Counted from the first letter of the stretch, positions 28,573 to 62,700 are shown. The stretch: DNA of 64,000 nt from Pocillopora damicornis (GCF_003704095.1 NW_020845547.1:248001-312000), one strand, 5' to 3'. Numbers and translations: made by a program. Notes: generated by a model from the letters alone, not told the origin.

Positions 28573-31425
28573 ATGGCGTCCATCTTAGGGCCATCGAAGG
28601 AAAAAACTAACGGTACCAAGTTAGCGCGACTGCTAATTGATGGCGGTACACAAGCGCTCAGGAACGTGATGGAGTCTTTCATACATCCGCCTTCAACACT
28701 GCAAATTATGTTAAACAACAACAAGGCGACCCTCGCCAACTTAAAGAGCAGACGTAAATTATATGATAGCCAGTGGGAAAAACTTTTTCCTCCATCGGGT
28801 GGCCCACCAGACGTAAACACATTTGATATCACTCTTCTACATTTACTGCTTCGTGAAATCTGTCCCGCTTTGATTGAACCTGCCACAGGATGGCACGAAA
28901 TGCCGGCAAAAACAGATCACAGTCGTGAAGCAGAGATCGTCCGGATTAAATGCTTGCGAAACAGCCTGTGTCATAGCATTTCCACCGGTGTTCCTAATGG
29001 CGAGTTTGAAGACAAATGGAATACAATTTCTCACTCTTTAGTAACCTTAGGACTCGATCAACTAGAAATAAACCGCCAAAAAACCGAAGACATCGATCAT
29101 GGTACACAGCGACGAGTCGAAGAAGAAGTGGAGAAATGGAAACTTGACATCGAACCGAGAGTGCAGACCTTAGAGTACGAAGTACAGCAGCTAAAAGTTG
29201 GGCGAATTTCAAGTAATGAACAGCCCATTTCAGAGGTGAGTGGGTCTTTTGAGCTTCTCAGTTGTCTTCCAGATGAGGTTCAAGATGTGTTTGGCCGCTC
29301 GAATGAAATTCAACGAGCTGTAAAATTGATTCAAAGCGGAACAGTCTCCATAGTTTCCTTAACTGGTGGACCGGGCTTCGGGAAGACCACTATGGCCAAC
29401 AAAGTGGCCCACGAGCTTGCCAGACGCGAAAACAGCCGAAGTGTGTTATATTGCTCACTAACATTCCAATCATCACTAAACGACATATTTACCAAAATGA
29501 TTCTTACCTGCAGCAAAGGCCTTTCTCAGCCGCCAGAGCATCCCAAACACTGGCTTCTGAACTGGAGCAAACAGCAATCTAGGAAAGTCACATTGATACT
29601 AGACAATGCAGATCGTGTCCTCGAGTCTGATGATCGAAAGCAGTTTGTTGACATGTTACGCGAAATGAGGACCTTGTCAAGCCAAAATCTAACTTTTATT
29701 ACTACGTCTAGAAAAATAGTGGATGCCCCCAGTAGTAATTCAAACATTAAAACCATTAGATTGAAGTCTCTTCCTTTGCATGAGGCAACCAAGGTTCTTC
29801 TTTCAAAGGTTGGCGATACGGAAACGAGAGAGGAGCTCTCCCAAACGGAAAAAATGATCTCACTGTGTGGTTGTGTCCCTTTAGCCCTTTGCATTGTTGG
29901 ATCTTTGCTTTCGGACTACAGAGAGGAAAAATTAATCGCAATTCTCCAAAAGAAACCTCTAGATGTTCTTCAGGACAATGATTTGTCGGTTGAAAAGGCC
30001 ATTAAGACATCATTCGATCTCTTAAGTGAAGCAGAACGAAAGGCGCTGGCAATTATGTCTGTATTTCCAGGTTCATTCGATTCGGATGCAGCTGAGGCTG
30101 TAATTACAGCTGTAATGGATTCTGAAGTTCAGCCAGTTTTGATTCTCCAATCGCTCAGAAACAGGTCTCTCTTGGAGCAGCCAAGTTCACGTAGATATGA
30201 AATTCATCAGCTTATCAGAATGTTTCTGTCGAAAGATAGTCACGCCAAGTATTCACAAGCTGTTTCTCAAGGTGAACAAGAAGCCTGTGCCCACTTCATT
30301 TGTCGACTTGCTTCCAATGCCAATATGTACTGGAGCAAAGATAAATGCAAGGAATCTGTTTTGGAATTTAGCAAAGACAGACACAACTTCGAGTATTTCT
30401 TGGAAATTTACATTCGTGATGCAGATCCTCTTCAATGTTCCACAAGTATATTTTTTGAAGACTTTCCACAAAAGTGTATGTATTTAGAAATGTGCCTTTT
30501 ACCTAACTTCTACATAAAAATTTTGGAAAAACTCTGGAAGTACTTCCACTCAGTAAGTCACCATGTTCACATCGTTGAAGTTTTGTGTCTTCTCGGACAT
30601 GAAAAGAGAAAGGTGGGCAAACTACCACAGTACAACTATCTGATGAATCTTGCCAAGGGAGTTTACTTTACCAATTACAAAGCTTTCAAAACAAACCGTT
30701 TGTCGCAAGTATATTTTTTTAATAGCTATGCCTATTTTCTTTCGGTACTAAGGCTTCCCAGTCGATCGGAAATGGTCTCCAAAGTCTATGAAATAGCTTT
30801 AATTTTGTGCCGTAAAAACCTCAAAGAACATCCAGAGACTGCAGCTACTTTGCAGTACATTGGTCGGCATAGCAAAAGTAGGAAACATCTTCAGGATGCA
30901 ATGGACATGTCTACCCTGTGCCTCGGAGAACATTTCATGACAGCTCAGTGTCACAAAGCCATCGCAGACTCCTACTTTGGACCGTCTTTCTACGAGAGGG
31001 ATAACACAGACATGGAGAAATGCTTTGAGCATTATGGAGCTGCACTGACTTTGATGAGAAATCTTGGTGTTGGTCACCACAAGGAAAGCATTTTGACACT
31101 GAAAAACTATGGAGTTTGCTGCAAAATCAAAGGAAATTTTCAAGAAGCAATAAGTGTCCTAACCAAATCAAAACAAGTTGCTGATATTGAATTGGAGGAG
31201 GACCACAAATGGAAAGTGATGATTGAAACACAGCTGGCCCTCGTGTATGACTGCGCTGGAAATGCAGAAAAAGCGGGAAAAGTCATGAAGGAAGCTCTGA
31301 ACATGAATAAGCGCCTCAAACAGTCAATCCATTGGTTAGCAAATAAAAGAGAGATCCGGGAATTCCTGAGGCGTCATCCACAGGTTTACCACGAGCCTCT
31401 GACGAGGTGGAATTCTCGTAGTTAG
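28573..31425 (+). CDS. HEPN(DZIP3-like)-STAND NTPase (NB-ARC-like)-TPR protein, copy 1, intact, 950 aa
   Basis: FDITLLHLLLRE, TGW, RIKCLRNSLCH (R-x4-H); Walker A GGPGFGKTT; Walker B LILDNAD; FITTSR; GCVPLAL; YEIHQLIR; TPR-like repeats (EHPETA, LGEHFMTA, EDHKWKV). Confidence 0.9.
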   Translation: MASILGPSKEKTNGTKLARLLIDGGTQALRNVMESFIHPPSTLQIMLNNNKATLANLKSRRKLYDSQWEKLFPPSGGPPDVNTFDITLLHLLLREICPALIEPATGWHEMPAKTDHSREAEIVRIKCLRNSLCHSISTGVPNGEFEDKWNTISHSLVTLGLDQLEINRQKTEDIDHGTQRRVEEEVEKWKLDIEPRVQTLEYEVQQLKVGRISSNEQPISEVSGSFELLSCLPDEVQDVFGRSNEIQRAVKLIQSGTVSIVSLTGGPGFGKTTMANKVAHELARRENSRSVLYCSLTFQSSLNDIFTKMILTCSKGLSQPPEHPKHWLLNWSKQQSRKVTLILDNADRVLESDDRKQFVDMLREMRTLSSQNLTFITTSRKIVDAPSSNSNIKTIRLKSLPLHEATKVLLSKVGDTETREELSQTEKMISLCGCVPLALCIVGSLLSDYREEKLIAILQKKPLDVLQDNDLSVEKAIKTSFDLLSEAERKALAIMSVFPGSFDSDAAEAVITAVMDSEVQPVLILQSLRNRSLLEQPSSRRYEIHQLIRMFLSKDSHAKYSQAVSQGEQEACAHFICRLASNANMYWSKDKCKESVLEFSKDRHNFEYFLEIYIRDADPLQCSTSIFFEDFPQKCMYLEMCLLPNFYIKILEKLWKYFHSVSHHVHIVEVLCLLGHEKRKVGKLPQYNYLMNLAKGVYFTNYKAFKTNRLSQVYFFNSYAYFLSVLRLPSRSEMVSKVYEIALILCRKNLKEHPETAATLQYIGRHSKSRKHLQDAMDMSTLCLGEHFMTAQCHKAIADSYFGPSFYERDNTDMEKCFEHYGAALTLMRNLGVGHHKESILTLKNYGVCCKIKGNFQEAISVLTKSKQVADIELEEDHKWKVMIETQLALVYDCAGNAEKAGKVMKEALNMNKRLKQSIHWLANKREIREFLRRHPQVYHEPLTRWNSRS

Positions 31426-62700: not shown

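Follow-up and report, generated by a model that had tools for sequence, protein, structure and literature searches.

We conclude, with a probability of about 0.55, that the window (the whole 64-kb stretch of DNA analysed) carries a mosaic birth-and-death array in which old, conserved TPR tails have been recombined onto more recently shared HEPN-STAND heads, the tails likely being kept distinct by selection for the recognition of different ligands. The domains of these genes differ in age, and not in dN/dS: the five domains are under uniform purifying selection, and the variety of the sensor survives as distinct, old and individually conserved TPR lineages that recombination has shuffled. Exchange of parts between copies, together with the greater age of the tails, explains why tails are more divergent than heads.

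The six R-N-x-L-x-H motifs in the window belong to six tandem copies of one intronless stony-coral gene, all on the + strand, with the Pfam architecture HEPN_DZIP3 (PF18738), NB-ARC-like STAND ATPase and TPR_12 repeats. Copy 1 (28573..31425, +) is an open reading frame of 950 aa and an intact single-exon HEPN_DZIP3-STAND-TPR gene, with Pfam matches to PF18738 (E 2e-50), PF00931 and PF13424, and it is covered piecewise by RNA contigs from three runs. Copy 2 (33525..36350, +), also an intact single-exon gene from its ORF and Pfam matches (941 aa), provides the residue numbering used throughout; a single polyA-RNA contig (33349-36453) matches it without gaps and with 3 differences, and RNA cover is absent from the spacer that precedes it (32784-33331) in three RNA runs. 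Altogether, copies 1, 2 and 6 are matched by RNA contigs. In the secondary structure of the AF2 model, the TPR solenoid of copy 2 (35484..36311, +) consists of six helix pairs and a cap, and the junction between HD2 and TPR is marked by a conserved patch, PQKxMYLE...LLCLLGHE (35385..35534, +; residues 621-670).

The remaining copies are damaged or incompletely assembled. Copy 3 (46671..49102, +) is a pseudogene that retains the last third of HEPN, the STAND part and the TPRs: the 5' two thirds of HEPN are gone, there is a stop near 46794 and a frameshift near 48960, and it is approximately neutral relative to its nearest paralogue, g8 (omega 0.64-1.38). A segmental-repeat block identified by self-BLAST (39277..46665, unstranded), 75-91% identical and containing decayed STAND fragments, adjoins this remnant at the point where the 5' part of HEPN is missing. 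Copy 4 (53456..55445, +) comprises HEPN and STAND, open until an N gap, with its TPR region unassembled; copy 5 (55889..57490, +) comprises HEPN, two N gaps, a 52-codon piece of STAND and the last ~33 codons. Because N gaps cut both copies, their TPRs lie outside any comparison. There are 12 N gaps in the window, and copies 4, 5 and 7 (the last lying downstream) are near-identical; their 5' ends (53210-54105, 55661-56538 and L031:7032-7519) are 87-92% identical and gap-flanked, and the true copy number is uncertain. Copy 6 (59796..62613, +) is a mosaic and a null allele of a gene that is intact in other individuals. It carries two frameshifts, from a 1-base deletion near 60276 and a 4-base deletion near 61671, together with a stop at 62431 and a TPR deletion of ~42 bases near 62258. 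Since these lesions segregate across four other runs (the first frameshift is present in X3, and absent from X13 and X17; the second is present in X13, and absent from X3, X16 and X17), they represent a null allele and not an assembly slip. Intact alleles are found in P0057, P0212, P0214 and P0218, and 4 of the 15 cluster members listed are full-length.

Upstream of the array lies a neurensin/TMEM74 ORF (PF14927; 14174-14929, +), and a similar-looking ORF, as judged by eye, adjoins a paralogous array on scaffold C1145 near 141-142 kb (L086). 7TM receptor genes are also found near both arrays, hinting that each forms part of one larger duplicated region. The window contains a rhodopsin-type 7TM ORF (26176-26991, -) that matches PF00001 weakly; an N gap breaks it, and it is situated within an inverted duplicate of ~80% identity (24168-25079 versus 26937-27855). 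Scaffold C1145 was considered as a haplotig of the window and rejected, being only ~80% identical and different in gene order; it was treated as paralogous. Between copies 1 and 2, a dispersed repeat of ~200 bases (31854-32060), probably a MITE or SINE, reaches very high depth in four runs, with further copies at 5013-5186, at 8288-8509 and on other scaffolds.

The HEPN-STAND-TPR subfamily amounts to ~12 copies on four scaffolds, namely, the six of the window, a seventh downstream (copy 7), and, at other places, g8-g12 and a fragment. Those near relatives that carry a name come from stony corals, and the 90% cluster of copy 2 contains a protein of Pocillopora verrucosa. HEPN-less TPR partners were not found in the genome: with 127 of 233 candidates scored, the 10 matches of the TPR search were family copies or fragments.

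The evidence for unequal domain age comes chiefly from synonymous sites. The codon set comprised 23 genes, five from this genome and 18 of 79 coral-metagenome loci, with the breaks of copy 6 coded as X; 23 of the metagenome loci have long ORFs, from which three near-duplicates, one incomplete sequence and one with a foreign HEPN were left out. The synonymous tree length increases from 8.0 for HEPN, through 9.3 for both NBD and HD1-WHD and 11.3 for HD2, to 13.6 for TPR, with a bootstrap standard deviation of about 0.5. Between copy 1 and g10, identity falls from 93% in HEPN to 58% in TPR (dS 0.15 versus 1.42), and for copy 6 and g8 the respective dS values are 0.19 and 0.99, the divergence of this pair rising stepwise near 61850. 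When restricted to four-fold sites of conserved codons, the differences between HEPN and TPR are 9/70 versus 28/56 for copy 1 and g10 (P 9e-6), and 11/59 versus 23/56 for copy 6 and g8 (P 0.014). Moreover, a close synonymous neighbour (<0.2) exists in HEPN for 17 of the 23 genes and in TPR for only 4, and in AU tests the TPR tree is rejected on the HEPN data and the HEPN tree on the TPR data. A gradient in mutation rate towards the 3' end is rejected as the source of this contrast, since several pairs are flat in dS (L135/L136, L124/L165 and g8/g12), although three of four genes do show a reduced CpG o/e downstream of HEPN. On the HD1-WHD tree, the head is younger than the tail in six of eight sister pairs, which is not significant by a sign test (about 0.29), and L108/L118 and L106/L119 show the opposite polarity, with the younger tail.

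Recombination accounts for these differences in age: old TPR cassettes have been regrafted onto more recently shared heads. A significant breakpoint was located in 14 of 18 pairs, which were picked after inspection and are non-independent, and most crossovers map either to the boundary between core and TPR or close to the linker between HEPN and core; seven fall at residues 607-675, two at 748, five at 99-307 and none at 310-600. Half of the significant breakpoints (7/14) are in or adjoining the PQKxMYLE...LLCLLGHE patch, although they may cluster there simply because the patch is conserved. The exchange can be followed in individual sequences. Four loci (L106, L109, L118 and L119) present all four combinations of head and tail, with the switch at residues 620-660: L106 resembles L118 as far as residue 620 or so and L119 from 660 onwards, and L109 is the reverse. 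Of the 33 informative HEPN positions of P0178, 30 are of copy-6 type, and the sequence is of g8 type behind residue 223; it is thus a copy 6 head on a g8 body, whereas P0079, which represents a cluster of 106 sequences, combines a HEPN start like that of copy 1 and g10 with a different body. Effector swaps cross HEPN subtypes as well, as L147 bears an Rx5H-type head (typified by RNTVYGH) on the same STAND-TPR body.

What keeps the TPR lineages apart is harder to establish. Under the reading we prefer, different TPR tails likely recognise different ligands, and selection would keep them distinct. The chief competitor, which we consider somewhat improbable, is a neutral mosaic: gene conversion and unequal crossover homogenise the parts that are most alike, and TPR ends that drifted early escape, with no ligand selection. 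Such a process would be consistent with the uniform omega and zero positively selected sites detailed below, and with the location of the breakpoints in the best-conserved patches. The frequency of pseudogenes and null alleles points the same way, as does the promoter-side homogenisation seen in copy 1/g10 and copy 6/g8, where the shared HEPN tract extends into the 5' flanks. It sits less comfortably with the purifying selection on the TPR lineages, which equals that on the enzyme domains (omega 0.28), such that the distinct tails must be maintained as working proteins, nor would it lead one to expect the complete lack of breakpoints at residues 310-600, given that conservation is higher in the STAND core than in the TPRs. 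The data fit both selection for distinct sensors and neutral escape from conversion after tail divergence, and do not separate them; we place the odds at about two to one for selection over self-reinforcing divergence. A stronger version of selected module swapping, which we advance tentatively, would see the family as a combinatorial kit, with ancient, individually conserved TPR cassettes and interchangeable putative RNase-switch heads joined by single-exon crossovers at conserved hinge patches. If true, this would be an animal NLR that fires an RNase directly, with a repertoire renewed by the swapping of modules and not by point mutation.

The effector itself has a well-preserved motif. The earlier note had reported that all six copies keep it, and each instance translates as described on the + strand: RNSLCH in copy 1 (28957..28974), which is of the Rx4H type, RNDLSH in copy 2 (33939..33956; R139, N140 and H144), RNELFH in copy 3 (46686-46703), and RNELCH in copies 4 (53879-53896), 5 (56312-56329) and 6 (60216-60233). 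Likewise, FDI[T/S]LLHLLLR and TGW, which it gave as constant, are present in all five copies that retain this segment. The window has six matches to RNxLxH, compared with a mean of 1.2 and a maximum of 4 in 60 shuffles, and copies 1, 2, 4, 5 and 6 score 137-181 bits against the PF18738 profile (cut-off 27). Invariance in six copies alone is nevertheless weak evidence, because these are homologous positions in paralogues and 73 of 174 HEPN columns are invariant across copies 1, 2, 4 and 5. The wider family is more informative. The homologue alignment contained 117 sequences: 115 of the 120 matches listed out of 743, to which copies 1 and 2 were added, after removal of four fragments and of a sequence nearly identical to copy 2; among these listed matches, R and H are retained in 115 of the 117. 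Retention reflects a real constraint, since the codons for R139, N140 and H144 vary synonymously and their site omega is 0.04-0.06. It is also the family norm. A HEPN search of the genome gave at least 78 matches; leaving out the short match to copy 3, they comprised 80 distinct segments, 70 of which span the motif, one being the second frame of a broken gene. The other 69 comprise 52 with RN-x4-H, 14 with RN-x3-H, one with R and H only and two that have lost R; hence 67 of 69 keep both R and H. The window subfamily is of the Rx4H type, and Rx5H accounts for 52 of the 69 domains, most of which, by eye, sit in other architectures such as NACHT with WD40-like tails. On five scaffolds (C1045, C1569, C4069, C612 and C4043), dozens of HEPN exons are clustered with open frames of only 220-300 codons.

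It is unlikely that HEPN serves merely to bind RNA or partner proteins without cutting, its motif being kept for structural reasons. That alternative would be in keeping with the PDB, where a sequence search with HEPN returned nothing significant, so that a solved relative was not found by this means, and where the fold matches of the HEPN model fall within a range common to helical bundles: Csm6 (4rgp) gives a middling Z of 7.9 (rmsd 4.5, 111 aligned), 6tug Z 7.3 and the sacsin HEPN Z 6.5, intermixed with unrelated bundles. The invariance of R, N and H in 48 of 48 non-redundant homologues, amid adjoining residues that vary, argues against this alternative, and Rx4-6H is described as a putative RNase site in the available part of one published account (PMC9646362).

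The central domain has the hallmarks of a STAND switch. PF00931 scores above the cut-off in copies 1, 2, 3, 4 and 6, and among the matches listed the Walker A sequence GGPGFGKT is found in 115 of 117 homologues and a Walker B-type [VI][LVI]D[NH][AV][DE] in all 117 aligned. Additionally, the alignment contains the sensor-1 (I/V/T)T.R, the GxP motif G..PL and an MHD-like H. The AF2 model of copy 2 (mean pLDDT 84.6) has the layout effector, NBD/HD1/WHD, arm and repeat sensor, and its best PDB match by Foldseek is the STAND-TPR protein 6mfv (E 1.6e-13), followed by Apaf-1 (1e-9) and resistosomes, with KLC1 also found. Close prokaryotic relatives were not recovered by sequence: the seven weak P-loop matches (best E 8e-7) are confined to the P-loop region. 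In the ESM Atlas, the STAND-TPR part lies closest in structure to a cnidarian cluster with DED in 77% of its members, which suggests, as far as predicted models allow, that the same chassis bears a death-fold effector too.

HEPN RNases such as Csm6, and the RNase L/Ire1 KEN domain, follow a dimer-activated RNase logic. By analogy with STAND and HEPN biology, binding of a ligand to the TPRs would release the ADP-bound switch, upon which STAND would oligomerise; the paired HEPN heads might then form a composite R-x4-H RNase site, and this predicted RNase could cut host or invader RNA, stopping translation or killing the cell.

The earlier note had proposed a fixed effector combined with site-level diversifying selection on the concave face of the TPRs; a pattern of this kind has been reported for fungal NLR TPRs. 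Its starting point is sound: the TPR halves of copies 1, 2, 3 and 6 do diverge more, since any two of them share 38-50% identity and are separated by 3-7 indels, as compared with an identity of 55-63% between the HEPN domains of copies 1, 2 and 6. The STAND core, 44-78% identical between the window copies, is about as conserved as HEPN, and the contrast is therefore between TPR and the rest, not between HEPN and the rest. For 48 representatives, protein identity is 66% in HEPN, 61% in both NBD and HD1-WHD, 56% in HD2 and 50% in TPR. However, dN/dS is uniform, which had been named beforehand as refuting: omega across the 23 genes is 0.274 for HEPN, 0.271 for NBD, 0.272 for HD1-WHD, 0.275 for HD2 and 0.278 for TPR, with intervals of about 0.24-0.31 (wider for HD2) and convergence from two starts. 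In the five genes of this genome that have all domains, it is 0.27-0.29 for HEPN and 0.21-0.25 for TPR. Site-level positive selection in the TPRs was rejected, as M8 performs no better than M7 or M8a for any domain and assigns a proportion (p1) of 0.000 to a class above 1 in TPR, in site models that lose power because branches are deep and in part saturated, and which used fixed relative branch lengths and purpose-written codon code. Nor is variation concentrated on the concave face: none of the fastest 40 is found past residue 657, and the A helices, which we take from TPR consensus numbering to line the concave groove (the B helices being convex), are the better conserved, with a mean identity of 0.62 versus 0.43 (P 3e-6); the faces were assigned by TPR consensus positions, not by coordinates. 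The near-invariant polar residues K789, D793, K839 and N840 of the A helices lie beside a few hypervariable groove positions (I843, S846, S847, D790 and E715). These last are what the proposal would predict, as are the Podospora precedent (the available part of PMC4986451) and the TPR omega of 1.38 for copy 3 and g8, although one member of this pair is a pseudogene and the value is not distinguishable from 1 (LR 2). Within six clusters, moreover, TPR is less polymorphic than HEPN (173/1686 versus 159/1044 sites, the sites being non-independent), and HEPN is the most polymorphic domain among near-identical members, in part because HEPN heads are exchanged, so the effector is not fixed. Of the proposal as a whole, the strong purifying selection on the motif and the greater divergence of the TPRs stand, whereas faster adaptive change in the TPRs does not; the diversifying model is largely refuted at the depth sampled, and we now think it quite improbable. 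The case cautions that the pairing of a conserved effector with a variable sensor need not reflect accelerated adaptive evolution of the latter.

An artefactual origin of the mosaics, whether through short-read assembly, misalignment or silent-site saturation, is hardly credible: the N gaps, the near-identical copies, the origin of most comparison genes in metagenome contigs and the reliance of P0178 on a single sequence would allow it, but the gradient is present at four-fold sites of conserved codons, chimeric partners still differ (TPR dS of 0.35 for L106/L119), unlike a collapsed assembly, and P0079 stands for its 106-sequence cluster.

The architecture and its expansion are already in print; this is a gene of a known kind with an ordinary motif, and what is new, to a modest degree, is the swapping of modules. 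Few immune gene families have expanded as much in corals and bivalves as the HEPN-headed NLR-like genes, and the locus offers a small family with intact expressed genes, natural chimeras and null alleles for questions of TPR specificity and RNase activity. In the open-access literature, supplements aside, we found no study of per-domain selection, recombination or RNase activity in the coral HEPN-STAND-TPR family, and in that literature no RNase assay or functional test for the HEPN-headed NLR-like family.

Cnidarian and bivalve NLR-like proteins with an N-terminal DZIP3/hRUL138-like HEPN domain are described in the available parts of several accounts (Anantharaman 2013, PMC3710099; Emery 2021, PMC8260672; Noel 2023, PMC10236652; Takeuchi 2022, PMC9646362), and share with the coral array the RN-x-H HEPN head, the STAND ATPase, the C-terminal repeats and a tandem, lineage-specific expansion. 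In the portions accessible, coral NB-ARC proteins mostly have TPRs, many with a DZIP3-type HEPN head (PMC10236652), the oyster proteins keep Rx4-6H in 194 of 202 cases (PMC9646362), TPR genes are tandemly expanded in corals (PMC12314368) and a role of the kind outlined above for the coral proteins was proposed for HEPN-NACHT fusions (PMC3710099). As far as those portions extend, the published accounts give counts and architectures, to which the coral array adds selection and recombination by domain.

Prokaryotic STAND-TPR proteins (6mfv, AfsR/SARP-like and Avs) appear, from the predicted model, to have a switch and sensor fold like that of the coral protein. The zebrafish NLR-B30.2 family, in the part of the report available (10.1101/027151), likewise shows domain-specific gene conversion through synonymous rates and tree conflict, but there the sensor, B30.2, is homogenised and positively selected, in multi-exon genes; in the coral array, by contrast, TPR is the deepest part, no omega exceeds 1 and exchange occurs within a single exon. 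The fungal NB-ARC-TPR NLRs (Dyrka 2014, PMC4986451, in the part available) have the same effector-STAND-TPR layout and KLC-like TPRs, but their repeats are conserved internally, polymorphic in length and positively selected on the concave side, whereas the coral TPRs consist of six divergent repeats with zero selected sites.
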